Source: Chloroflexota bacterium | Lineage (GTDB): Bacteria > Chloroflexota > Dehalococcoidia > GIF9 > UBA5629 | Direction of reading: 5' to 3' | Assembly: GCA_016875875.1 (NCBI GenBank) | Contig: VGOP01000006.1 | Span: forward strand, 72,773 to 136,772 | DNA: 64,000 nt | Shown: positions 14,564 through 63,390 of the stretch, piece by piece | Layout: every line of letters begins with the position of its first letter | How positions within the stretch are numbered: the first letter of the stretch is position 1 | The notes under the pieces: model-generated | What the model was told of the DNA's origin: nothing | Seen by the model: only the letters and a program-made list of their open reading frames with translations | The model's database searches: none | Program-made: the position numbers and the translations under genes

Positions 14564-15435
14564 AATATTATAGTTACTTCCCTGGCTGCTGTATGCACGA
14601 TGACAGCCCGATGTACGACACGTCGGCCAGAGCTGTCGCCCAAGTTTTGGATATGGAACTCATCGAGCTTGATGACTGGAATTGTTGTGGTTCCACACCC
14701 TACACAGTTGTTGACGAATTGTCTGCCTTTTGCTGCTGCGCCCGCAACTTGGCACTGGCTGAAAAAAGAGGCTTTGACCTGGTGGCAGCCTGTAGCGACT
14801 GCTACCTCATACTTAATAGGACCGACCAGCACTTCAAGGAATACCCGGAGATAAAAACCAGAATAAACGAAGCCCTCGCCGCTGGTGGGCTGGAATATCA
14901 TGGGACTGTCAGGGTACGACATATCCTCGATGTCTTTGCCAATGATGTCAGCAGTGAGGACATCAAAGCCAAGGTCAAAGTGGACCTCGGTGGGTTGAAA
15001 GTAGCTCCTTATTATGGCTGCCAGGTAGTGCGGCCGACACCTAACTTCGATGATCCAGAATATCCTCAATCACTGGAGCACCTGATAGAAGGCTTAGGAG
15101 CCGAAGCTGTACCCTATCCGTTGAAAACTCGCTGCTGTGGTGGTTCCCTGATACTATCCGAAGAGAGTATAGCGCTAGGATTAATGCACAAGCTACTCGA
15201 TAACGCGTTAAGCAACGGCACCGAGTGCATTGTGACCGTATGCCCATTCTGCCAACTAAATCTGGATGCTTACCAAAGCATGGTCAACAGGAAGTTCAAG
15301 ACAAATTTCAACCTGCCTATTTTGTTCTTCACCCAGCTCATGGGTATAGCCTTTGGAATCGAGAGCAAAGCTGTAGGTCTGAAATATAACATAGTTCCAG
15401 CCGATAAAGTATTAGCCTCATATGTCAGAAAATGA
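14560..15435 (+). CDS. hdrB: heterodisulfide reductase subunit B
   Basis: Two CCG domains (DDWNCCGS..., ...[15 protein letters not shown]). 291 aa. Confidence 0.9.
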
Positions 15436-15448
15436 TAAGGAGGAGCGA

Positions 15449-17410
15449 ATGGAGCCGAAAATAGGTGTCTATATCTGCCACTGCGGAGCCAATATCGCCG
15501 CCACAGTTGATGTCGAGAAAGTAACTGAGTCCGCCAAAAGCTTACCATCGGTATTTGTGGCCAGAGATTACAAATTCGTGTGCTCGGACCCAGGACAAGA
15601 GCTGATAAAGAATGACATCAAAGAACTGGGACTTAACCGCATTGTGGTGGCCTCATGTTCACCAAGATTGCATGAACAAACTTTCAGACGAACATTAGCC
15701 AGTGCCGGTCTGAATCCATACCTTTTCGAGATGGCAAATATCCGTGAGCACTGCTCCTGGGTACATGAGGACGGTGGAAGAGCAACTGAGAAAGCCAAGG
15801 CGCTTGTCAGCGCTGCAGTAAGGCGAGTTGCTCACCACATACCACTGGAAACTAAAGAAGTTCCGTTTAATCCTAACACGTTGGTAGTCGGCGGAGGCAT
15901 TGCTGGTATACAGGCAGCGCTGGAGATCGCCGACTCGGGCCATAAAGTCTATCTGGTAGAGCGGGAACCTTCGATCGGCGGCCACATGGCTCAACTCGAT
16001 AAAACCTTTCCCACCTTAGACTGTTCCGCCTGAATACTCACACCTAAGATGGCCTCGGTGAGGTCACACGAAAACATCGAGATGATGACTTATAGCGAAG
16101 TCATGGAAGTTTCAGGCTATGTGGGTAACTTCAAGGTCAAGATTAGAAAGAAGCCACGCTACATAGACGAAAGCAAATGCACCGGCTGTGGCACCTGCCA
16201 GGATAAATGCCCCATGAAAGCAGACAGCGAATTCGATTTTGGGATTGGCACAAGAAAGGTAATATATACACCATTCCCGCAGGCGGTACCAAATATCCCG
16301 ATAATTGACCGAGAGCGTTGCACCTATTTCCTCAAAGGCAAGTGTAGAGCCTGCGAGAAATTTTGCGAGGCCAAGGCAATTGACTTCGAGCAGACAGAGA
16401 AGATAATCGACCTGGATGTGGGCTCGATCATCGTTGCTACAGGCTTCGATTCCTTTGATCCCTCCCCAATGTCTCAATTCGGTTATGGACGATACGATGA
16501 CGTTATCACCGGCTTCCAGTTCGAGAGAATGAGCAGTGCTTCGGGACCCACCGGAGGTAAGATATTGCTCAAAGACGGCTCAGAGCCACGAAGCATAGCC
16601 ATACTGCACTGCATTGGCAGCCGCGACCTCAACTATCACGAATATTGCTCTCGTGTCTGCTGCATGTATTCGCTCAAGTTCGCTCACCTAATTAGGGAAA
16701 AAATCCACGACGCCGAAATCTATGACCTTTACATTGACCTCCGCTGCTTCGGCAAAGGCTACGAGGAATTCTACAACCGCCTTCAGGAGGAGGGGGTCAA
16801 CTTCATCAGGGGCCGTGCTGGAGAGGTTACCGATGTAGCCGAAACTCCCGAAGAAAAGGGAAGACTCGTGGTTCTCTGTGAAGACACCTTAATCGGTCGG
16901 CAACGGCGCCTTCCCGTTGACATGGTAATTCTGAGCAATGCCTTGGAGCCTCGTTCTGATGCCAAAGAGGTAGCCAAGCTCTTTTCTATCAGCCGAAGCA
17001 GAGATGGCTTCTTCCTGGAGAAGCATCCCAAGCTTGACCCCGTGGCCACAACAACAGATGGCGTTTTCGTCACCGGTTGCTGTCAGGGACCAAAAGACAT
17101 TCCCGACACCGTAGCCCAGGCCTCAGCCGCCGCCGCCCGTGTCATGGCCATGATATGCAAAGGCAGTGTTGAGATTGAGGCAGCTACTGCGGTTATCGAA
17201 GAGGAGTTCTGTTCCGGATGCAAGACTTGCATTTCGCTCTGCCCTTATAATGCGATTTCCTTCAACGAGGATAAGAAAGTATCTATTATCAACGAAGCTC
17301 TATGCAAAGGTTGCGGCACCTGTACTGCCGCCTGCCCCAGCGGAGCTATCACCAGCCGACATTTCACCGTTAAGCAGATTATGGCACAGCTGGAAGGAGT
17401 GATGATATGA
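15449..17410 (+). CDS. hdrA: heterodisulfide reductase subunit A, selenocysteine-containing (in-frame TGA at 16031..16033)
   Basis: Track ORFs 15422..16033 and 16049..17410 share one frame and are separated only by a TGA. The joined protein reads ...[27 protein letters not shown]. It is collinear with the Cys paralogue at 19250 (...[27 protein letters not shown]). Both are 653 aa. The start is the ATG at 15449 behind AAGGAGGAG. Confidence 0.9.
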
Positions 17411-17814
17411 GCTACGAGCCAAAGATAGTCGGATTCTTATGCAATTGGTGCTCTTATGCAGCCGCCGATTTGGCAGGCACCTCCCGGAAAAAATATGCGC
17501 CTAATGTACGCGTAATCCGAGTTATGTGCAGCGGTCGTGTCGAGCCCACCTTTATCCTCAAAGCTTTCCAGTTGGGTGCAGACGGTGTGCTCGTATGCGG
17601 CTGACATCCCGGCGAATGTCATTACCTGGAAGGTAATGTAAAGGAAGCCCGCAGGATACCCTTGCTCAAGAAAATGCTAGGTCAACTCGGCATCGAAGAG
17701 GAGCGGCTTAGGCTGGACTGGGTCTCAGCCTCAGAAGGCGACCGCTTTGCTTCCATTGTCGATGATATGACTGATCAAATAAGAAAGCTTGGCCCTTTTA
17801 GCCAAAATGGCTGA
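17407..17814 (+). CDS. mvhD: MvhD/VhuD-like [2Fe-2S] subunit, selenocysteine-containing (in-frame TGA at 17602..17604)
   Basis: The ORF stops at ...DGVLVCG-TGA. My read-through translation continues [69 protein letters not shown] (stop 17812-17814). This matches the paralogue at 21208 (...[17 protein letters not shown]...[29 protein letters not shown]). The TGA aligns with Cys67 of the paralogue. Confidence 0.9.
17620..17638 (+). promoter_or_regulatory. candidate bacterial SECIS hairpin for the mvhD UGA
   Basis: CAUUACC-UGGAA-GGUAAUG: a perfect 7-bp stem with a 5-nt loop. It starts 16 nt 3' of the UGA at 17602. Confidence 0.6.
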
Positions 17815-19249: not shown

Positions 19250-21211
19250 ATGGCGAAACCCAAGATAGGTGTATATGTTTGCCACTGCGGGTCTAATATC
19301 GCCGGTACCATTGATGTACCGCAGGTAGTCGAGTTTGCTAAGGGGCTGCCGGCGGTAGCAATTGCCCGCGAATACAAATTTATGTGTTCTGACCCGGGAC
19401 AGAGCATGATTAAGGATGACATTAATAACTTAAAGCTTAACCGGGTAGTGGTTGCCTCCTGTTCTCCACTACTGCACGAGCAAACCTTCCGCCGCGCAGT
19501 TCAAGAGGCCGGAATCAATCCCTATCTCTTCGAGATGGCAAATATCAGAGAACACTGCTCCTGGACCACCGAAGACCACGGAGAAGCCACCGAGAAAGCC
19601 AAAGCCCTGGTAAGCGCTGCAGTAAAACGCGTCTATTATCATCAGCCTTTAGAGACAAGAGAGGTTCCGGTCAATCCAAATACCTTAATTGTTGGTGGCG
19701 GCATCGCCGGGATTCAGGCTGCATTAGAAATCGCCGATGCCGGGCACAAAGTTTATCTGGTCGAGAAAGACCCGAGCATCGGTGGACACATGATTCAATT
19801 CGACAAAACCTTCCCCACCCTGGACTGCTCTGCCTGCATCCTCACCCCCAAGATGACCTCAGCAGGCTCTCATCATAACATCGAATTAATGACCCACAGT
19901 GAAGTCAAGGAAATCGCCGGTTTTATCGGCAACTTCAAAGCCAAGATTCGTAAAAAAGCTAGATTTGTTGATGAGTCCAAATGCAATGGCTGCGGTGTGT
20001 GCATGGAAAAATGTCCATGGAAAGCAGATAGCGAGTTTGACCTCGGATTAAGCCAGCGAAAAGCTATCTACACCCCATTCCCACAAGCAGTACCTAATAT
20101 CCCCGTGATAGACAAGGAGAGCTGTGCCTATTTCCTCAAAGGCAAATGCCGTGCCTGCGAAAAGTTCTGCGAGAGAGAAGCCATTGACTTCGAGCAGCAG
20201 GATAAAATTGTCGAGATAGATGTAGGCAACATAATCATAGCCACCGGCTATGACCCGTTCGACCCCACCCCCATCATCAAGTACGGTTATGGTAAATTTC
20301 CTAACGTTGTCACCGGCCTCGAATTCGAGAGAATCTGTAATTCCGTAGGACCTACCGGTGGCAAAATCGTTCTTAAAGACGGTTCTGAGCCAAAGAGCAT
20401 AGCTATCATCCACTGTGTCGGCAGCCGCGATGAAAATTACCATGAATACTGTTCTCGCGTCTGCTGTATGTATGCCCTCAAATACTCCCACCTTATAAAA
20501 GAAAAAACAAAAGCCGATGTCTATCAGATGTATATAGATATGCGCTGCTTTGGCAAGGGATACGAGGAATTCTATAAGCGACTATCTAAAGAAGGGGTTA
20601 CTTTCATACGAGGCAAGCCAGCCGAGGTTAGTGATAGGGCAATGAGTGAAGAGGAGAAAGGAAAACTGATTGTCGTCGGCGAGGACAGTTTACTTGGAAC
20701 CATTGTCAGAGTCCCGGTCGACATGGTTATCCTGTGCATAGCACTAGAAGCCCGTGCTGATGCCAAGAACGTTGCCCAGTTGTTCAGTATAAGCCAAGGG
20801 GCCGATGGCTTCTTTATAGAGAGACATCCCAAACTTGACCCGGTAGCAACTATGACTGAGGGTGTCTTTATCGCCGGCTGCTGCCAGAGTCCTAAAGACA
20901 TACCTGACACCGTAGCCCAGGCCTCAGCCGCAGCTACTCGCGTCTTGGCCTTGATAAGCAAGGGGAAAGTTGAGCTAGAGGCAGCCGTCGCAGTAATTGA
21001 TGAAGAGAAATGCTCTGGCTGCCGAATCTGCAATCTACTCTGTCCCTACAACGCTATTGACTTTATTGAAAAAGACGAGGTATCTCGAATTAACGAAGCT
21101 CTGTGTAAGGGTTGCGGTACTTGCGTCGCCGCCTGTCCTAGCGCAGCTATAACACATAAGCATTTTACCACTGAAGAAATTATGGCAGAAATCGAGGGGG
21201 TATTAGTATGA
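19250..21211 (+). CDS. hdrA: heterodisulfide reductase subunit A (Cys form)
   Basis: 653 aa. FAD-binding [17 protein letters not shown], several 4Fe-4S motifs ([36 protein letters not shown]), and Cys where the upstream copy has TGA. Confidence 0.95.
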
Positions 21212-21636
21212 ACAACTTCGAACCAAAAATCGTCGGCTTCTGTTGTAACTGGTGCTCCTACCGGGGAGCCGATTTAGCTGGCACTGCCAGAATGAAATGC
21301 TCTCCTAATGTCCGCATCATCAGAGTGATGTGCAGCGGCCGGGTGGAACCAACATTTGTTGCCAAAGCTTTCGAACTGGGAGCGGATGGCGTTCTGGTTT
21401 TAGGTTGCCATCCTGGTGATTGCCACTATGTCGAGGGCAACTATAAGACAATGCGGCGCATGCCATTGCTCAAGAAAATGCTAGGGCAGCTCGGCATTGA
21501 AGACGAGCGGGTGCGGCTCGACTGGGTATCAGCTTCCGAAGGGGACCGCTTCGTCTCAATAGTTGACGATATGACCACAAAGGTTAGAGCCTTAGGGCCC
21601 TTCAAAAAGAACTCCAAGGAGGCAAAACATGGCTAA
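21208..21636 (+). CDS. mvhD: MvhD-like [2Fe-2S] hydrogenase/heterodisulfide reductase linker subunit (Cys form)
   Basis: CCNWCSY...VMCSGRV...GCHPGDCHY pattern. ATGA overlap with hdrA. Confidence 0.9.
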
Positions 21637-24603: not shown

Positions 24604-25854
24604 TCACCACTTTTCTTGAGATAATCTGGAGGTAAGCCAGGTACGCAAAGGTTCATCTAACATACCAACCCTGGATTCCAGCCAGCGGACGTCCCCGCTC
24701 TCCAGTGCAGCTTTTGCTTCCGGTGTTAGATTATAAGCCTTGAGAGCCTGATTAGGATTGTCCGCCAGTTTAGCCAAGAACTTAGTGTCATCTCTAGCTC
24801 TAGCTAACACCGATATGAGGGCATTAGTCTCCGCATCCAGATAGGCTGCTTGCTGAGGCTGCAATTGTGGCTTAGAAAACATACCTGCAAGCCAGGGCCT
24901 AGCAGCTACTGCTTCAGCAGCACGTTCCTTGCGAAGGTATATTAGCCAATATATACTACCTACAAACGTGCCGCCGACGATATTGCCCAGAGTAACTGGA
25001 AACAGATTACCGATAAGGCCAGCGACATTGAGATTAGCCACCTGGCTTGCAGTCACGCCAGCTACTTCAAGGACTTTGGCCTGTCCCGCCATAGCTATGC
25101 CCATTGGAATGAAGTACATGTTAGCTATGCTATGTTCAAAACCACAAGCCACAAATGCAGTTATAGGAAAAAGGATGGCGAATACCTTATCAATGGTGGA
25201 GCGAGCACCAAAACAAAGCCAGACAGCTAGACAGACAAGCGTATTGCACAGAATTCCACGAGCAAAAGCCGTCCAAAAAGCCAAGTTGACTTTGGCATTA
25301 GCTATTGATAAGGCATTGACACCCACTTTAAAACCATCCAGTGCCCAAAACTGACTATAAAAGACTACAAGCACTAAGAGCAGTGACCCAACAAGATTGG
25401 CGAAATAAACTATGCCCCAGTTTTTAAACAATTGAGACAGCCTTATCTTGCCACTGGCTCGACCAGCTACCATAAGCGCATTACCAGTGAACAGCTCGGC
25501 TCCAGCTAACACCACGAGAATAAGTCCTAGGCAGAACACAACTCCGCCGAGCAGCTTGGTCAGGCCAAAACCAACCTGGATATCAGTAGTAACCAGAGTG
25601 CAGAACATGGCTCCCAAACCAATAAAGAACCCCGCCAATATTCCTAGCAGCGAGATAGACCAGATATTGCCATTAGCTTTGGTTACTCCCACACCTTCCA
25701 TTTTTACCGCCATCTCCGCCGGCGGTCTACAGTCAGTAGTGGCACAGATTTTCAGCTCTTCCAAGGCAGTCTGTAAGCGAGACACCTCCATAGTTGGAAG
25801 CTTCCCCACCTCCAGTCTTTGTATTTCCTTACCTGATGACTTTAAGTCTGCCAT
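24604..25854 (-). CDS. formate/nitrite transporter (FNT) family channel with a C-terminal ~100-aa soluble extension homologous to the two small SQEKW proteins
   Basis: FNT signatures (LAGAELFTGN, ACGFEHSIANMYFIP). I chose the ATG at 25854 (MADLKSS...) behind GGGGGAGG, not the track start at 25965, which overlaps the upstream gene. The tail ...ISVLARARDDTKFLAKLADNPNQALKAYNLTPEAKAALESGDVRWLESRVGMLDEPLRTWLTSRLSQEKW aligns with 25871..26200 and 30126..30452. Confidence 0.85.
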   Translation of the reverse strand: MADLKSSGKEIQRLEVGKLPTMEVSRLQTALEELKICATTDCRPPAEMAVKMEGVGVTKANGNIWSISLLGILAGFFIGLGAMFCTLVTTDIQVGFGLTKLLGGVVFCLGLILVVLAGAELFTGNALMVAGRASGKIRLSQLFKNWGIVYFANLVGSLLLVLVVFYSQFWALDGFKVGVNALSIANAKVNLAFWTAFARGILCNTLVCLAVWLCFGARSTIDKVFAILFPITAFVACGFEHSIANMYFIPMGIAMAGQAKVLEVAGVTASQVANLNVAGLIGNLFPVTLGNIVGGTFVGSIYWLIYLRKERAAEAVAARPWLAGMFSKPQLQPQQAAYLDAETNALISVLARARDDTKFLAKLADNPNQALKAYNLTPEAKAALESGDVRWLESRVGMLDEPLRTWLTSRLSQEKW

Positions 25855-25870
25855 GATTCCATTCCTCCCC

Positions 25871-26200
25871 CTACCATTTCTCCTGAGACATTCGGTACCA
25901 CAACCAGGTTGACAGACGCTTGTCCAGTTTCCCCACCCAACTCTCAATCTTCTGGATATCACCACTAGCTAGAGCTGCTTTCTCTTCCTGTGTCAATGTG
26001 TAATACTCCTTAAGTGCTTCGTGAGGATTATCTGCCAGACGGGACATGAATTCAGGCTCGTCGGCTGCTCTGGCCAGCACAGACAATACTGCCCACCTTC
26101 CGGTCAAGCCCTCTTTTGGGACAACTGTAGGTGCACTAATAAGTCTGTCAAGTGCTTCGGGGGTAGTTTCTTCGGTCTTTCTATGAACTTCCTTAGCCAT
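25871..26200 (-). CDS. small helical protein ending in SQEKW (paralogue 1; NHLP/LigA-like appearance)
   Basis: 109 aa. A strong SD (AAGGAGG) lies 7 nt before the ATG. The stop is 16 nt before the FNT start. Over the last 87 residues I counted 9 differences from the protein at 30126..30452. Confidence 0.8.
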   Translation of the reverse strand: MAKEVHRKTEETTPEALDRLISAPTVVPKEGLTGRWAVLSVLARAADEPEFMSRLADNPHEALKEYYTLTQEEKAALASGDIQKIESWVGKLDKRLSTWLWYRMSQEKW

Positions 26201-26238
26201 TTTGACACCTCCTTCTTTATTTTGGTTTCCACCCTAAA

Positions 26239-26303
26239 TGTAGCAACTATCAAAGTATCTCTCATCGGTCTTCAGCTCTAATTGCGATAGGGCTTTAGGT
26301 ATG
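26239..26303 (-). promoter_or_regulatory. conserved ~65-bp upstream element, copy A (promoter/operator or 5' leader of paralogue 1)
   Basis: It aligns with 30496..30561 at a similar distance from the start codon. Shared blocks (plus-strand reading) are TGTAGCAA, TCATCGGTCTT, AGC.CTAATT.CGATAG and CTTT. Confidence 0.55.
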
Positions 26304-26455
26304 TACAAAAGTATCATGTTGGCCGAACAAGCAGTGCTGCTATTTGGAATCCTACGGATGCTCAAAACAAGTGTGCTTTGGCCATTAGTACTAGTTCTTT
26401 TAGGCTCCGCAATTGACACTGGGTTGACTTTATTTTAGAATGCAAGCCAAATAAA

Positions 26456-26576
26456 GAGGGGGGTGGACGGTGACAAACGCGGCGTGTTCGGCTATTACGT
26501 CAAGGGGGCAAGGCACAGGCTCGGGGTCAACTGCTTTGAAGGAATTGTCTGTCACCGCCCACTCGGTACCCTCCTC
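26456..26576. other. unassigned ~120-nt element with a long interrupted closing helix (possible structured RNA; strand undetermined)
   Basis: GAGGGGGG...TGGACGGTGACA (26456-26475) pairs with TGTCACCGCCCA...CCCTCCTC (26549-26576) around a G/C-rich ~70-nt interior. It lies in the 533-bp gap between the satP stop and the paralogue-1 start. The only ORF listed in that gap (26234..26419) is unconvincing and does not overlap the element. Confidence 0.4.
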
Positions 26577-26733
26577 TATTAAGGCATCACACCTACAAGT
26601 TGAATTAAGTTAATGCCACCGAGTTTAACAATTAATTCCAGATTACCTTGCTCATATTTATTTGTTAATAGCAACTCCCTGGTTTCCAAGGTATTACAAC
26701 TAGTCCAAACAGCTAAAATATGTCTCTAACAAT

Positions 26734-27309
26734 TTATTTGGAAATCAGGCCGATAGGGAACACCCACCTTCCGAACTTGTCATTCAACACCACGGCTGCT
26801 GATCCATAGGCTGCTGCAGCACCACAGCACAGTCCTTCTATTCCTGCTACCACTGCTGGCAGAATACCAAAAAACACGGCTGCAAGCAGGAAGAACAGTA
26901 TCGTCAAAGTGGCGAACACGAAGATGTGCATCACTGACATTCTAAAGGTGCCTATGGTCATATAACCGGTGAATATACCCCAGCATATGAACAACCAGGC
27001 AAGTCCGGAGCTCTCCATCTCTACTACACCAGTCCACTGCAACAGGAAGTAAAAACTCAGTCCTAGCCAGAACAAACCATATGAAGTGAATGCAGTCAGA
27101 CCAAAGGTGTCACCACGACGAGCGTCTATTATGCCGGCAATAACCTGAGCCACACCCCCCCAGAAAAATCCGTATACCAGTGGCAGGGTACCTTCAATCA
27201 AACCGAGATTGTGTATCTGTAACAAAATAGTATTCAGGCCAAATCCAGCTAACCCTAAGGCACCTGGATTAGCCCACTTAACATCATTTTGAGTCATTAC
27301 CTTTGCCAT
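26734..27309 (-). CDS. satP: acetate/succinate channel, GPR1/FUN34/YaaH (SatP) family
   Basis: NPGALGLAGFGLNTILLQIHN and six hydrophobic helices, as is typical of YaaH/SatP. It lies directly downstream of acs. Confidence 0.85.
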   Translation of the reverse strand: MAKVMTQNDVKWANPGALGLAGFGLNTILLQIHNLGLIEGTLPLVYGFFWGGVAQVIAGIIDARRGDTFGLTAFTSYGLFWLGLSFYFLLQWTGVVEMESSGLAWLFICWGIFTGYMTIGTFRMSVMHIFVFATLTILFFLLAAVFFGILPAVVAGIEGLCCGAAAAYGSAAVVLNDKFGRWVFPIGLISK

Positions 27310-27383: not shown

Positions 27384-29351
27384 CTAGATTCTCTCCTTAA
27401 CCAGTATATCAACCACCGAGGGGTCAGCCAGAGTAGTGGTATCACCCAATTGCTCTACGTCACCAGCAGCAATCTTGGTCAATATTCTCCTCATAATCTT
27501 GCCGCTCCTGGTCTTGGGCAAAGCATCAGCAAATTGAATCTTGTCTGGTGTAGCTATGGGGCCAATCTCTTTGCGAACATGGGCTACCAGTTCTTTCTTA
27601 AGCTCTTCGGACTTTACCACGCTAGCTTTTAGAGTAACAAAAGCATATATGCCTTGCCCTTTTATCTCATGGGGCATGCCAACAACTGCAGATTCTGCCA
27701 CCTTATCATGAGACACCAGAGCACTTTCGACCTCGGCCGTGCCTATGCGATGACCTGACACATTAATAACATCATCTATACGACCCATTAACCAGTAGAA
27801 CCCGTCTTCGTCTACCCTAGCTCCGTCTCCTGTTGTATACACGCCAGGGAACCGAACAAAGTAAGTGTTCTTGAACCTCTCAGGGTCACCATAGACCCGC
27901 CGCATCAGACCCGGCCAAGGTTTTTTAATCACCAAGTAACCGCCCTCATTCACATCAGCAACGGAACCATCCTCCCTAAGCACGGCTGGCTCAACCCCAG
28001 GAAATGGTAACGTCGCTGACCCTGGCTTAAGTGGAGTAGAACCGGGTAAAGGAGTGATTAATACTCCGCCTGTTTCTGTTTGCCACCAGGTATCTACAAT
28101 CGGACACTTACCTTTACCTATTACATTGTAGTACCAAATCCAAGCCTCGGGATTTATAGGTTCGCCCACTGTTCCTAAGAGACGCAAGGAGGTCAAATCA
28201 TGCTTTTCAGGCCACTCATCTCCCTCCCTCATTATGGCCCGTAGAGCAGTGGGGGCAGTGTAGAAAATACTGACTTGGTACTTTTCGACAATGTCCCAGA
28301 ACCTATCAGGATGGGGATAGTTTGGTACCCCTTCAAACATAAGGACCGTTGCTCCGTAAGACAAGGGGCCATAAACGATATATGAGTGCCCAGTCACCCA
28401 ACCAATGTCGGCTGTGCACCAGAAAGTGTCTTCTTCCTTCATGTCAAAAATCCACTTAAAGGTCTGATAGCAGTACAATAGGTAACCTGCCTGAGTATGG
28501 AGAACGCCTTTCGGTTTCCCGGTGCTACCACTGGTGTACAAGATAAACAGAGGGTCTTCAGCATCCATAACCTCAGGCTCACAGTGTGCTTTAACGCCAT
28601 CAGCAGCCATCTCGTTATCCCACCAATAGTCACGCCCTTCTTTCATGGCTACTTCAATATTAGCCCTCTTGACCACTATTACATCTTTTACGTCAGGGCA
28701 GGCCGCAAGGGCTTCATCAGCATTGTCTTTACTCCGGATAATCTTACCGCCACGATAGTAACCATCTACACAAATGAGTACCGTAGACCCGCAGTCCAGC
28801 ATCCTATCCTTCAAGGCGTCAGCGCTAAAACCACCAAACACAACACTATGAATAGCACCGATCCTGGTACAGGCCAACATAGCAATCGGTAATTCGACAA
28901 TCATAGGTAGATAAATAGATACCCTATCTCCCTTTTTAACGCCATGTTTTTTGAGCACATTAGCAAATTTGCACACCTCTTGATACAGCTGTTGATAGGT
29001 GAGTATCTTGCTGTCACCAATGTCACCTTCCCAAATCAGTGCTGCCTTATTTCTTCTCCATGTCCTAACATGCCTGTCCAAGCAATTTTGACAAACATTG
29101 AGTTTGCCGCCCACAAACCATTCGTGCTTGCCCTCTTTGAAATCATCAACAAGCACCTTATCCCATTTCTTGTACCAATCCAGCTGCTCTGCCATCTCTC
29201 CCCAGAATCCCTCGGGGTCGTTAATGGACCATTGATAGACGTCTTTATACTCGACCAGATTCCTTATGTAAGCCTTTTCACTGACTTCCCTTGGAGGATT
29301 AAAAACTCTTTTCTCCCCCATCATTGAGGTGATTGTTTTAATATCTGCCAT
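27384..29351 (-). CDS. acs: acetyl-CoA synthetase (AMP-forming)
   Basis: 655 aa. AMP-binding motif [20 protein letters not shown], and C-terminal SGKIMRR with the conserved acylatable Lys context. Confidence 0.95.
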
Positions 29352-29394: not shown

Positions 29395-29850
29395 CTACAC
29401 CTGAGAAGTGACACCCAATAACTGAGCATATGCCTGGCGCAGTCTAGTTGCTACCACACGTGCAATCCCCCTGGAGACTCTGCAGCCTATCTCAGGCTTG
29501 GTGATGCACAAAGCGGATAACTCTTGCCCATCAAAGGTCAACACCTTTGTACTCTCTAAAGCTTTTACCGTAGCCGTGCAAATATATGGGTCGAGCATAG
29601 CTGACCAACCGAATGCCTCGTAATCAGTTACCGCTTGAACCTGGCGTTGGGCAAGTGGCCCAACTTCCAGAATAATCCCTACCGTGCCGTTTTCAATCAC
29701 GTAGAGTTTTTGCTCCTTGCAACCCTGCTTGCAGATAATCGACCCAGCACCAAATTCTTCATGGTCGCACATTTTTTCCACTTCGCGAAGCTGCTTATCA
29801 TCCAAAGTCCTGAACATTTCGCATTTTCTCAACACATCAAACTTCTTCAT
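29395..29850 (-). CDS. cyclic-nucleotide-binding domain protein (effector domain only, no HTH)
   Basis: 151 aa with a CAP_ED-like pattern (FRTLDDKQLREVEKMC...FGAGSIICKQG...LYVIENGTV...EAFGWSAML). No DNA-binding domain follows. Confidence 0.7.
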   Translation of the reverse strand: MKKFDVLRKCEMFRTLDDKQLREVEKMCDHEEFGAGSIICKQGCKEQKLYVIENGTVGIILEVGPLAQRQVQAVTDYEAFGWSAMLDPYICTATVKALESTKVLTFDGQELSALCITKPEIGCRVSRGIARVVATRLRQAYAQLLGVTSQV

Positions 29851-30125: not shown

Positions 30126-30452
30126 TTACCACTTCTCCTGTGACAGTCTATACAACAGCCAGGTTGACAAACGCCTGTCTAGCTTGCCCACCCAACTCTC
30201 AATTTTCTGTATATCACCGCTGGCTAAAGCCGCTTTTTCTTCCTGAGTCAATGTGTAGTATTCCTTAAGGGCTACGTGAGGGTCATCTGCCAAGCGGGAC
30301 ATGAACTCAGGTTCATCAGCTGCCCGGACAAGCACAGATAGTATCGCCCATCTCCCAGCCAAGCCATCCTTCGGAACAACGGTAGGCGCTTTGATCAGCT
30401 CCTCCATTGCTTCGGTAGTTTCTTCGGTCTTCCCACGAACCATCTTATCCAT
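30126..30452 (-). CDS. small helical protein ending in SQEKW (paralogue 2)
   Basis: ...KTEETTEAMEELIKAPTVVPKDGLAGRWAILSVLVRAADEPEFMSRLADDPHVALKEYYTLTQEEKAALASGDIQKIESWVGKLDRRLSTWLLYRLSQEKW. I chose the ATG at 30452, 8 nt after GGAG. The GTG at 30461 and the ATG at 30443 are alternatives. Confidence 0.8.
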   Translation of the reverse strand: MDKMVRGKTEETTEAMEELIKAPTVVPKDGLAGRWAILSVLVRAADEPEFMSRLADDPHVALKEYYTLTQEEKAALASGDIQKIESWVGKLDRRLSTWLLYRLSQEKW

Positions 30453-30495: not shown

Positions 30496-30561
30496 TGTAG
30501 CAATTAGCAATTGGGCTATCATCGGTCTTTAGCCCTAATTTCGATAGTACTTTGGCCTATG
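30496..30561 (-). promoter_or_regulatory. conserved ~65-bp upstream element, copy B (in the divergent region between paralogue 2 and the response regulator)
   Basis: See 26239..26303. About 47 of the first 60 aligned positions are identical by hand alignment. Confidence 0.55.
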
Positions 30562-30660: not shown

Positions 30661-31350
30661 ATGAAGACGAAGACCAGAATTTTAATCGCCGATGACCATC
30701 CACTGCTGCGCGAAGCACTGTGCCAAGTATTTTCCAATCAAAAAGACATGGAGATAGTTGGCCAAGCAAATAATGGTGAGGAGGCTATCAACCTAACTTC
30801 CCAATTGAAGCCAGATATTCTAGTTATGGATATTATGATGCCAAAGTTCGATGGTCTTGAAGCTAGCCGACAGATTAAGAAAATTGCTCCCAATACTGCC
30901 ATATTAATTCTCACTGCCTACGATGACGACAATTATGTTCTTGGATTACTAGAGGCTGGAGCAACTGGTTACTTGATGAAGAGTGCTCGAGGACAAGACC
31001 TGGTAGAAGCCGTGCGAGCTATAAGAGCCGGCGAATCAGTACTTCACCCTAAAATCATTGAGAAGCTGCTCAAGCAAGCCATGGCTAAACCAGCAGAAAC
31101 TGTAGACCGCAAAATAAAGGACCTTCTGAGCGACCGGGAGATGGAAATGCTGAAGCTGTTGGCTACCGGAATGAGCAACAAAGAGATAGCCGACAAACTA
31201 TGTCTCAGCCTACGTACTGTCAAGGCTCACATGTCCAATATTTTCACCAAGATGAATGTCGCTTCGCGAAGTGAAGCTCTCGTTGAGGCCCTTAGAACAG
31301 GACTTCTTACCTTAAAAGATATCAAACAAGAAGCTACTCCAGAAGATTAG
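30661..31350 (+). CDS. NarL/LuxR-family response regulator (paralogue of 12941..13606)
   Basis: ILIADDHPLLREAL...DIMMPKFDG...TAYDDD, plus the LuxR HTH LSDREMEMLKLLATGMSNKEIADKLCLSLRTVKAHMSNIFTKM. Confidence 0.95.
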   Translation: MKTKTRILIADDHPLLREALCQVFSNQKDMEIVGQANNGEEAINLTSQLKPDILVMDIMMPKFDGLEASRQIKKIAPNTAILILTAYDDDNYVLGLLEAGATGYLMKSARGQDLVEAVRAIRAGESVLHPKIIEKLLKQAMAKPAETVDRKIKDLLSDREMEMLKLLATGMSNKEIADKLCLSLRTVKAHMSNIFTKMNVASRSEALVEALRTGLLTLKDIKQEATPED

Positions 31351-31413: not shown

Positions 31414-32850
31414 ATGTCAGATAGATGGCGAATTTTCCACATCTGTTTGCTAACCCTCTTTTTCTTAGTTCTAACTCTATCTCATTACCACGAGCTTCTG
31501 GCCGGGATACCTATAGTAGGCGAGGTATCTATTACTTCGTCCCTTGGTTTATCAAGGCATGTCATAGAGCGATTCATTTACATCGTACTCGTAATCTATG
31601 CTGGCTGGTCACTGGGAATAATGTTCGGCATTGCTACATTGTTGGCCTCTGCTATCGCTATGCTACCTTGGGCACTATTTATATCCACTAATCCCATAGA
31701 CGCCATAACCGAGAGCATCGCTGCGCTTATTATCAGTGGCTTAAGCATTTCCCTAATTCAAATGCACCGCGGATGGTATCGGCAAAAACAAAGGCTGCGT
31801 GGAATCAAAGTGGCCTTAAGAACATCCCAACAAAACTACGAGGAGCTTTTTACTAATGCCAGTGATGCCATCTGGGTTCATGACCTTAACGGCAAGATAA
31901 TTATGGCCAATAAAGCCTGCGAAACAGTCAGTGGCTATTCCCCAGATGACGCAATAGGCAAAAATGTTTCCGAATTTATGTCCCCCGATGCGCTCAGTAT
32001 AGCCAGAGGAATCAAAATTAAGCTCATGAAGGGCCAAGCCATAGACCAGCGCTACGACCAAAGATTAATCAAAAAAGATGACTCAGAAGCTATTGTAGAA
32101 TTGTTTACCCGTCTAATCAGAGATGATGACGGCAAGCCCATCGCCTTTCAGAATATCGCTCGTGATGTGACTGAGGAAAGAAGACTGCGGGACAATCTCC
32201 GATTTCAAATTCACAAAACTCTCATGGCACAGGAAGAAGAGCGAAAACGCATTGCTCGGGAACTCCATGATGATATTGCCCAATCTATATTGTTATTGTC
32301 ACGCCAACTGGATATCCTTATATCCGGAGGTGCCCAGAATAGGCTGCCAAAAGCTTCAGTAGGCGAGCTAGAGTATATACAAAACATAGCCAACGAGACC
32401 TACAAAGGTCTGCAGCGCTACGCACGTGACCTGAGACCAAGCATTTTGGACCAGATGGGACTAGTGGCAGCATTGAATTGGCTGGCTGAGGAACTTAGTA
32501 AAGAACTGGGGACCAAAACTACGGTGAAAGCGGATAAATTGCCCCTACTCGCCTCAGAAACAGAGCTAGCCATGTTTCGCATTGCGCAAGAGGCATTGAA
32601 CAACGTTCGGAAGCATGCTCAAGCTTCCGAGGTCAACATTACAGTGAAAACTGATTCGAACAATATAAAGATGGCTATCACAGACAACGGCAAGGGCTTC
32701 TCGACACCCAGATTGACCGGGGATCTGGCAAGAGAGGGAAAACTCGGCGTCTTGGGCATGGAAGAGCGAGCACGTCTTATCGGAGGTGAGTTACACATAA
32801 AATCCGGGCCAGGCAAAGGTACAACTGTAATCGCCAAAGCACCTATTTAA
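31414..32850 (+). CDS. membrane-bound sensor histidine kinase (TM-PAS-HisKA_3-HATPase)
   Basis: Hydrophobic N-terminal ~125 aa, a PAS region (NYEELFTNASDAIWVHDLNGKI), the H-box RIARELHDDIAQSI, and an ATPase region (DNGKGF, GVLGMEER, GKGT). Confidence 0.9.
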   Translation: MSDRWRIFHICLLTLFFLVLTLSHYHELLAGIPIVGEVSITSSLGLSRHVIERFIYIVLVIYAGWSLGIMFGIATLLASAIAMLPWALFISTNPIDAITESIAALIISGLSISLIQMHRGWYRQKQRLRGIKVALRTSQQNYEELFTNASDAIWVHDLNGKIIMANKACETVSGYSPDDAIGKNVSEFMSPDALSIARGIKIKLMKGQAIDQRYDQRLIKKDDSEAIVELFTRLIRDDDGKPIAFQNIARDVTEERRLRDNLRFQIHKTLMAQEEERKRIARELHDDIAQSILLLSRQLDILISGGAQNRLPKASVGELEYIQNIANETYKGLQRYARDLRPSILDQMGLVAALNWLAEELSKELGTKTTVKADKLPLLASETELAMFRIAQEALNNVRKHAQASEVNITVKTDSNNIKMAITDNGKGFSTPRLTGDLAREGKLGVLGMEERARLIGGELHIKSGPGKGTTVIAKAPI

Positions 32851-63269: not shown

Positions 63270-63291
63270 TAAATACAATTTAAATACAATT
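63270..63291. repeat. exact 11-bp tandem duplication TAAATACAATT x2
   Basis: Read directly at 63270-80 and 63281-91, in an AT-rich spacer. Confidence 0.7.
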
Positions 63292-63349
63292 GGGGGGCAA
63301 TGAAGCGCCGGCCGCAATTTGGTCACTTGGTTGGTGCCGAGCCAGTAGT

Positions 63350-63390
63350 GAAACCGACCCATTTTTTGTGTCGGTTTCTTTCTCTTTCTT
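63350..63390 (+). terminator. terminator/attenuator-like hairpin followed by a T-rich run, upstream of the secreted-protein gene
   Basis: GAAACCGAC (63350-58) and GTCGGTTTC (63370-78) form a perfect 9-bp stem, followed by TTTCTCTTTCTT. A second hairpin, TTTCTTG-CACG-CAAGAAA, follows. Confidence 0.4.

Follow-up and report, generated by a model that had tools for sequence, protein, structure and literature searches.

Why would a predicted formate channel carry, behind its last transmembrane (TM) helix, a soluble domain that is also encoded in the form of free-standing small genes? This question is raised by a 64,000-nucleotide (nt) stretch of DNA from a Chloroflexota bacterium of the Dehalococcoidia (assembly GCA_016875875.1, contig VGOP01000006.1, positions 72,773 to 136,772 of the forward strand), which is referred to as the window in its full length. 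The window contains a gene for a channel of the FNT family with a C-terminal extension and two small genes, here named A and B, whose products resemble this extension. An earlier reading, made from the sequence alone (the sequence-only reading), had noticed the extension and suggested that it might be a gating, sensing or partner-docking device. Gating and direction control of FNT channels are still debated and, to our knowledge, PflB is the only established partner of an FNT protein, namely of FocA. Based on comparative genomics, we propose, with a probability of about 0.55, that the domain serves as a module for protein-protein docking, which would pair free and tethered copies and thereby regulate or assemble formate transport and oxidation.

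The tailed FNT channel and its free paralogues

The last 72 residues of the FNT protein are closely related to both small proteins. BLASTP alignments gave 44 of 73 identical positions with small protein A (60%, E 1e-26) and 43 of 73 with small protein B (59%, E 8e-25), which is a higher identity than the "roughly half" that had been estimated by eye in the sequence-only reading. The identity between small proteins A and B amounts to 89%, and all three copies end in SQEKW, as had been noticed before. A tblastn search detected these three copies of the domain in the window and no others. Between the stop codon of small gene A and the start codon of the FNT gene there are 16 nt, in agreement with the distance given earlier. 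Small gene B is the first gene of a unit that further codes for a cyclic-nucleotide-binding (cNMP) protein, an acetyl-CoA synthetase and a SatP-type channel, and it is divergent from a response regulator gene. For small protein A, 1222 homologues were found.

Instead of a frameshift or a stop codon between core and tail, an outcome that the sequence-only reading had taken into account, we found the intact fusion in at least 120 separate 90%-identity clusters (74-91% identity) in a search of 5.8 billion proteins. Nearly all of these homologues have a length of 415-418 amino acids (aa) with 100% coverage. The clusters stem from NCBI, JGI, ENA and Logan assemblies, and all named ones belong to the Chloroflexota/Dehalococcoidia. 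More distant forms of 446-482 aa also retain the tail. Among 119 homologues, the fraction of residues identical to that of the window is 0.88 for the tail domain, 0.88 for the FNT core and 0.61 for the linker of about 27 residues between them. Frameshifted FNT genes do occur in two of the related loci (L023 and L008), but apart from the a priori possibility nothing else favours a sequencing or assembly error that has fused the FNT gene with a third small gene. The uninterrupted architecture is conserved across independent assemblies and in the distant forms, which already refutes this explanation and leaves it with a negligible probability. Judged from these alignments, the fusion is genuine.

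The mechanical list of open reading frames (ORFs) contains a 453-aa version of the FNT gene, which starts with a GTG at position 25965 (24604-25965, minus strand) and overlaps the 3' end of small gene A. This version was rejected as an artefact of the listing. Because the homologues are 415-418 aa long and a Shine-Dalgarno-like sequence, GGGGAGGA, precedes the ATG at position 25854, this ATG is considered the real start codon. The Pfam model PF01226 matches the protein over the full model length with 243.8 bits (gathering threshold 34.6). The pore threonine, in GAELFTGN, and the central histidine, in CGFEHSIAN, can be read directly from the translation of the core; a study on FocA gives T91 and H209 as the crucial residues of that channel (PMC9380403). 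The last TM helix ends in IYLRKERAAE (aa 305-316) and is followed by 100 more residues, which fits the extension of about 100 residues described in the sequence-only reading. The Y-L-R motif in this segment is essential for formate translocation by E. coli FocA (PMC5572259). With 249.9 and 228.8 bits, the protein scores below the FocA equivalog cut-offs of TIGR04060 (290.1 bits) and NF008069 (440 bits), respectively. As judged by its motifs, the FNT protein is thus FocA-like, yet does not receive a FocA equivalog call, and its predicted substrate is formate, a short monocarboxylate.

No hydrophobic stretch follows TM6 of the FNT protein (maximum Kyte-Doolittle hydropathy of 0.51 over 19 residues), and the termini of E. 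coli FocA are cytoplasmic (PMC5572259). Since no further membrane pass is expected after TM6, the homology with FocA places the tail in the cytoplasm, which answers the question of topology that had been left to be checked.

Family and fold of the tail domain

Small proteins A and B match the NCBIfam model NF038399, "Os1348 family NHLP clan protein", with 44.4 and 40.7 bits, respectively, and are both above its cut-off of 40 bits. The FNT tail stays below the cut-off, with 27.9 bits when scored within the full protein (E 1.8e-6) and 32.3 bits when scored on its own, but the 60% identity to small protein A shows that it is homologous to the members of this family. The Pfam model PF14407 (Frankia_peptide) reached 15-27 bits for the three copies, which is under its gathering threshold of 48, and no direct match of the window copies to the hidden Markov models (HMMs) of NHLP leaders or Nif11 was obtained in Pfam and NCBIfam scans. 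A profile search of the PDB returned weak but coherent matches (E of about 0.1-1.5), namely Os1348 (6LK7), SonA, nitrile hydratase alpha and gallate dioxygenase.

An AlphaFold2 model of small protein A, based on 39 close homologues, had a predicted local distance difference test (pLDDT) score of 53.6 and was unfit for a fold search, and a model of the tail (aa 320-416; diverse alignment of 128 sequences) was used instead. The tail model consists of a disordered linker and six helices, with a pLDDT of about 80 for the domain and 73 for the whole model. The top Foldseek match is SonA (target-normalised TM-score 0.67-0.74, root-mean-square deviation 1.9 Å, about 24% identity, probability up to 0.98, E of at least 0.5), and LigA (1bou) is found at rank 19; no match had an E-value of 0.001 or lower. 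LigA, nitrile hydratase alpha, Frankia_peptide and Nif11 have been placed in one ECOD X-group (PMC12353581). Taken together, the family matches assign the domain to the NHLP clan (NF038399, Os1348 family), and its predicted six-helix fold points to the LigA-like domains. The resemblance to NHLP/Nif11-leader-like and LigA-like domains, which had been mentioned in the sequence-only reading, therefore holds at the level of the clan, through NF038399, the SonA and LigA structural matches and the ECOD X-group, but not as a direct HMM match to NHLP leaders or Nif11. The invariant residues of the domain are mostly core hydrophobics and turn glycines, to which D388, E393, E414 and W416 are added.

When 1.84 billion representative proteins were screened with a profile built from the copies of the window, 341 proteins with E-values of 1e-3 or lower were detected, 137 of them at 1e-10 or lower. 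Architectures were counted for the best 150 of these 341 family members. Most of them (125/150) are no longer than 140 aa; the domain extends to the final residue in 114 and a C-terminal tryptophan is present in 105, typically within ...QE(K/R/I)W. The 25 longer members carry the domain on FNT channels or at the C-terminus of molybdopterin formate dehydrogenase alpha subunits. Further host proteins contain one or two receiver (REC) domains (P0285, P0298, P0314 and a protein of locus L031) and, in P0241, a HTH_17/MerR-type DNA-binding domain precedes two tandem copies. A Fer4_22 protein also has two copies, and in NuoE-like 2Fe-2S proteins the domain is N-terminal. Natural tandem duplications are seen in P0241 and P0243. 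Receiver fusions are also present in cultured Desulfobacterota, with one in Desulfosarcina widdelii (P0387, WP_155305044.1) and two in Desulfocicer vacuolatum DSM 3385. Judged by this range of hosts, the domain is shown to be a mobile module. Its presence on formate dehydrogenase, receiver domains and other proteins goes beyond the sequence-only reading, as do its ties to formate metabolism and the adjacent two-component system.

The free copies of FNT operons and of formate dehydrogenase operons are 71% identical to each other, whereas they share 53% identity with the FNT tails and 63-66% with the formate dehydrogenase tails. In addition, all free copies contain one extra residue (in EYYTLT), which is missing from all tails. 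These identities and the one-residue indel indicate that the free protein is the constant, orthologous component, and that the tails are attachments to differing formate-handling proteins. The N-terminal extension of the free protein is variable and missing from minimal forms of 76-78 aa, and the function must therefore lie in the domain itself. The N-terminal motif APTVVPKEGLxGRW was considered as a channel-binding peptide and rejected; it is limited to the clade of the window, and other free copies have unrelated, variable or no N-termini.

Genomic context and a shared upstream element

The context of the domain was compared in 42 related loci, which were obtained by pattern-seeded searches of species-representative genomes and a few look-ups, so that the co-occurrence counts are lower bounds; a subfamily alignment added just four loci. 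A candidate locus from a Pseudomonas metagenome-assembled genome (MAG), L032, had no plausible ORF and was dropped as spurious. The survey of related genomes for the same fusion and neighbours, which the sequence-only reading had proposed, gave a uniform result: in each of the 24 tailed-FNT loci, the tailed FNT gene is directly preceded by a gene for a free copy. Of the 42 loci, about 30 have a divergent gene pair for a kinase and a LuxR-type regulator next to the free copy. In the simplest layout (L012, L017, L028 and L041), the kinase and the LuxR-type regulator are encoded on one strand and, divergently, the free copy and the tailed FNT channel. In the clade of the window, the genes for the cNMP-binding protein, acetyl-CoA synthetase and SatP are inserted, together with a second free copy. 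The coordinates of these features are listed in Table 1.

Table 1. Coordinates and supporting evidence for the features of the window (position 1 is its first letter)
Feature	Position	Strand	Basis
FNT channel gene with C-terminal domain, 416 aa + stop	24604..25854	-	ORF, ribosome-binding site, homologue lengths
Tethered domain copy, aa 345-416, ending SQEKW	24607..24822	-	BLASTP to free copies, NF038399, AlphaFold2 model, Foldseek
Linker, aa 317-344, variable, not hydrophobic	24823..24906	-	Conservation, hydropathy, pLDDT <60
Y-L-R motif, aa 306-308, directly after last TM helix	24931..24939	-	Sequence read directly
FNT core, aa 47-304	24943..25716	-	Pfam PF01226, E 2e-72
Free small protein A, 109 aa, domain aa 37-109 (nt 25874-26092)	25871..26200	-	NF038399, 1222 homologues, synteny
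29-nt cis element upstream of small gene A	26262..26290	-	Window matches, conservation
SatP/GPR1-FUN34-YaaH family acetate/succinate channel	26734..27309	-	PF01184, E 1e-25
Acetyl-CoA synthetase	27384..29351	-	ACAS_N, AMP-binding, AMP-binding_C
Stand-alone cyclic-nucleotide-binding domain protein	29395..29850	-	PF00027, E 7e-11
Free small protein B, 108 aa, domain nt 30129-30347	30126..30452	-	NF038399, identity to A, synteny
Second copy of the 29-nt cis element, ahead of small gene B, intergenic region shared with response regulator	30519..30547	-	Window matches, conservation
Response regulator (REC + LuxR/GerE helix-turn-helix), divergent from small gene B	30661..31350	+	Pfam domains, synteny
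Histidine kinase (N-terminal hydrophobic region, PAS, HisKA_3, HATPase_c)	31414..32850	+	Pfam domains, synteny

In sister Dehalococcoidia, the domain is found in formate dehydrogenase operons, which code for a free copy, NuoE, NuoF and an FdhA protein of about 1000 aa with the domain at its C-terminus (L018, L020, L021, L024, L026 and L040); two further operons (L025 and L027) end before the C-terminus of FdhA. The tailed FdhA is the catalytic subunit of an NAD-linked formate dehydrogenase. The kinase and the regulator encoded at these operons are paralogous to the pair of the tailed-FNT loci, with about 50-60% identity. The tailed FdhA gene of L018 (7244-8380 and 8396-10219, plus strand) is split by one in-frame stop codon at the site of selenocysteine in formate dehydrogenases, and FdhA genes split by selenocysteine codons are likely present in L031 and L037, too. 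It was also considered whether L021 and L033 are one contig; BLAST says no, hence there is no evidence of a tailed formate dehydrogenase and a tailed FNT channel in one genome from this pair.

Other loci have no tailed partner. Free copies are located directly upstream of other formate dehydrogenase genes in a Wood-Ljungdahl context (L037 and L038), upstream of an HdrABC-MvhD-FdhB-FdhA cluster (L042), and between HdrA-like genes and genes for two CRP-type regulators (L035, L036 and L039). In cultured Desulfobacterota, response regulators with the domain as their sole output are encoded near a GAF histidine kinase and HdrA-MvhD-FdhA; in Desulfocicer vacuolatum DSM 3385 (L031, 8373-10213), two tandem REC-domain genes and the kinase gene are located ahead of this cluster. 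Throughout these loci, the domain family goes together with the transport or oxidation of formate and with signalling proteins, and maturases of ribosomally synthesized and post-translationally modified peptides (RiPPs) were never seen beside family members in the surveyed loci.

Both free small genes of the window are preceded, at a distance of about 75 nt, by the same 29-nt element, CTATCGNAATTAGNGCTNAAGACCGATGA. The two matches compare with 0 expected by chance in the window, and about 19 related loci have kept the element together with flanking bases. An imperfect inverted repeat, CTATC...GATAG, is found within the element. A role of the element as RNA was rejected, as the folding z-score is -0.66 and no Rfam match was found in the locus; a simple sigma-70 scan gave no promoter over the element. 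Because an RNA-structure signal is missing, the element is likelier to be a DNA site and is probably a shared operator or promoter element. It is also a candidate operator for the divergent LuxR-type regulator. The 533-nt gap between the SatP gene and small gene A (26201-26733) contains a weak terminator-like hairpin (26691-26677, minus strand) in addition to the 29-nt element, which suggests a separate transcription unit for small gene A and the tailed FNT gene, possibly duplicated together with its control region.

Some other features of the window were recorded. The second HdrA paralogue (15422-17410, plus strand) has a single in-frame TGA (16031-16033) within LDCSA-[TGA]-ILTPKM, where the HdrA paralogue at 19250-21211 has a cysteine, and the gene is split likewise in related loci; it probably codes for a selenocysteine protein. 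The same probably applies to the MvhD/FlpD paralogue at 17407-17814 (plus strand), which has an in-frame TGA (17602-17604) in GVLVCG-[TGA]-HPGECHY, whereas the copy at 21208-21636 has a cysteine. A cyclic di-GMP-II riboswitch aptamer (Rfam RF01786) is located at 63284-63368 (plus strand) and was detected as a full-length match with 65.1 bits (gathering threshold 53.5).

Docking of free and tethered copies, and known systems

We propose that every channel protomer uses its tethered copy to pair with the co-transcribed free copy or copies. The pentameric channel would in this way gain a detachable soluble partner, which could regulate it, gate it or link it to other proteins. As the tail starts only a few residues past the YLR peptide, partner binding at this position could plausibly gate the pentamer. 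The free and tethered pair would form a conserved unit of a formate regulon, which is probably controlled by the PAS histidine kinase and the LuxR-type regulator encoded next to it. Sister genomes have the same free protein, which might pair there with the tail on the catalytic subunit of the NAD-linked formate dehydrogenase and, in the Desulfobacterota, the domain might act as the output of receiver domains. We infer the pairing and its regulatory effect from several observations. The characterised relatives of the domain all bind partner proteins, as seen for the Os1348 homodimer, SonA-SonM and LigA-LigB, which argues for a docking role. A pair is further suggested by the natural tandem duplications and by the recurrence of copies in twos per locus, either as a free copy and a tail or as two REC-domain genes in L031. 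Since the free protein is fused to FNT and FdhA elsewhere, it is expected to interact with these proteins (Rosetta-stone logic). Moreover, the five tails of a pentamer cannot all pair mutually, which leaves a role for the free protein, and the cis element shared by both free genes is counted as additional support. The comparative genomics is thus consistent with the gating, sensing or partner-docking device suggested in the sequence-only reading and appears to strengthen this suggestion.

Several points weigh against a docking pair. The Foldseek E-values of the tail model are not significant (best 0.5) and Os1348 is absent from its top 50 matches. The assignment of formate, rather than acetate or another acid, as substrate of the channel is based on motifs and neighbours. 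With five tails per pentamer, plain tail-tail dimerisation cannot explain everything. Free copies are also encoded beside untailed formate dehydrogenase or Hdr genes (L037, L038, L042 and L035), and the Desulfocicer REC-domain genes have no tailed target within 20 kb. Due to these untailed loci, the free protein is not strictly dependent on a tethered copy and may bind something else; as judged by gene neighbourhoods, they show that it has some target other than the tail in at least some organisms.

Apart from a docking pair, one might think of the domain as a tether of a metabolon, which docks the channel, or elsewhere the formate dehydrogenase, onto one shared redox complex, for example HdrA-MvhD/Mvh hydrogenase or formate dehydrogenase, so that imported formate is handed directly to the enzyme, and free copies compete with this docking or cap it. 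In the clade of the window, the tailed-FNT operon and a HycI-MvhAGD-HdrABC cluster are always arranged convergently; free or REC-fused copies adjoin HdrA-MvhD-FdhA(B) clusters (L031 and L042) and HdrA-like genes (L035, L036 and L039), and a large formate dehydrogenase gene in L012 adjoins the genes for the kinase, the regulator, the free copy and the tailed FNT channel. There is also a precedent for control by an enzyme, as E. coli FocA is controlled through binding of the formate-producing PflB (PMC5572259). Nevertheless, this explanation is rather doubtful: a tailed FNT channel and a tailed formate dehydrogenase were never found in one MAG (among species-representative genomes, by a pattern-based search with limited sensitivity), no Hdr or Mvh subunit bears the domain in any surveyed locus, and the constant co-encoding of a free copy is left unexplained. 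A signalling adaptor is an unlikely explanation, too. Here, the free protein would co-regulate the adjacent transcription machinery (LuxR-type regulator, kinase or cNMP/CRP-type protein), and the tails would sequester or release it depending on substrate flux, as in trigger-transporter or partner-switching systems; alternatively, the tail would be a cis-acting autoinhibitory or ligand-sensing plug. This would agree with the position of the free gene as first gene beside a divergent two-component system in about 30 loci, with the fusions to receiver domains (P0285, P0298, P0314 and L031) and to a helix-turn-helix domain (P0241), and with the conservation of the free class regardless of which protein bears the tail. 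It would also fit the free copies near two CRP-type regulators (L035, L036 and L039) and the cNMP-binding protein encoded after small gene B. However, free copies also occur without a nearby regulator (L037 and L042), and the predominantly structural invariant residues include no recognisable ligand-binding motif.

The name of the NCBIfam family, the weak Pfam Frankia_peptide matches and the best structural match, SonA, which is itself a RiPP precursor, could be taken to mean that the small proteins are NHLP-type precursor peptides and that the channel tail is a related recognition or decoy element; Os1348 has also been proposed to be a modified, antibiotic-related precursor (PMC7726476). We consider this very improbable. 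The fold reaches the last residue in 114 of the 150 family members and 105 of them end in tryptophan, which leaves neither a core peptide nor a Gly-Gly cleavage site. In the window and the annotated related loci, YcaO, SagB, lanthipeptide, GNAT/peptidase and peptidase-ABC exporter genes are all absent from the surrounding 8 kb or so; genes for formate, acetate, Hdr and two-component-system proteins are found there instead. Moreover, large enzymes, a channel and receiver domains carry the domain as a fusion. Judged from architecture and neighbourhood, the domain does not act as a RiPP precursor here.

We favour a docking pair and, more tentatively, one might speculate that the LigA-like domain with the QE(K/R)W end represents an unrecognised interaction network of formate metabolism in anaerobes, namely in Dehalococcoidia and some Desulfobacterota. 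In such a network, a constant free protein, or a receiver fusion, could dock on grafted copies (on FNT, FdhA, NuoE-like and helix-turn-helix proteins), switch transport and oxidation post-translationally and feed back to the two-component system, as a GlnK/AmtB-like layer made from a RiPP-leader fold.

With its folded cytoplasmic domain and a soluble paralogue encoded beside it, this natural channel makes a possible regulatory mechanism directly accessible to experiments. That formate dehydrogenase bears the same module suggests a joint control of formate uptake and oxidation in the abundant subsurface Dehalococcoidia, and its presence on the channel and, in related genomes, on the dehydrogenase points to a formate metabolism that is controlled or assembled in an undescribed way. 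The receiver fusions, for example that of Desulfosarcina widdelii, would add a new, protein-binding type of output domain to the response regulators, and the cultured Desulfobacterota (Desulfocicer vacuolatum and Desulfosarcina widdelii) make the domain tractable for study. As the "NHLP clan" or "Frankia peptide" proteins of these genomes do not appear to be RiPP precursors, genome-mining pipelines will give false positives. Full-text literature searches yielded no description of an FNT channel or a formate dehydrogenase with this domain, and no account that places the family outside a RiPP context. The absence of such an appendage from canonical FocA, as assumed in the sequence-only reading, agrees with the literature: E. 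coli FocA ends shortly past YLR (PMC5572259) and a phylogenomic survey of FNT proteins from 2017 mentions no fusions. A known channel family and a known fold clan are thus combined in an architecture and a context that have not been described before.

Among the known systems, Os1348 of Pseudomonas sp. Os17 (PDB 6LK7), the founder of NF038399, forms a stable homodimer in the crystal (PMC7726476). This small protein has six helices and belongs to the same HMM family as small proteins A and B, but the sequence match of the domain to 6LK7 is weak (E 0.1). In its OS3 cluster, genes for a GNAT protein, a HEXXH peptidase and a SagB-type dehydrogenase are located downstream (PMC7726476), whereas none of these genes is found at the window locus or in the related loci. 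In addition, the window proteins differ from Os1348 by the conserved ...QE(K/R)W end, the formate, acetate and two-component neighbours and the fusions to a channel and enzymes. With the LigA-like modules, namely the borosin precursor SonA, NHLP/Nif11 leaders and LigA of the LigAB dioxygenase, which all act through partner binding, the domain may share the helical core. Unlike an N-terminal leader, the window domain is located at the extreme C-terminus of its host, without a core peptide or maturase, and no LigB-family gene is present among the Pfam-annotated neighbours.

E. coli FocA is likewise an FNT formate channel with the Thr/His pore and the YLR motif and its cytoplasmic face is the site at which soluble PflB/TdcE control translocation (PMC5572259). 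It differs from the window channel in that it ends a few residues past YLR and binds the glycyl-radical enzyme via its N-terminal region (PMC5572259), whereas the window channel has a predicted folded C-terminal domain and a co-encoded small paralogue, with no pflB gene nearby. In functional terms, FocA-PflB and AmtB-GlnK might be the nearest analogies. GlnK is a small soluble regulator that is co-transcribed with the oligomeric ammonium channel AmtB and is thought to dock on its cytoplasmic side and to control the flux. The gene for a small soluble protein in the operon of an oligomeric channel would be the feature common to both systems. The folds are unrelated (PII versus LigA-like), the window channel itself bears the fold of the small protein, and the same small protein accompanies a dehydrogenase elsewhere.

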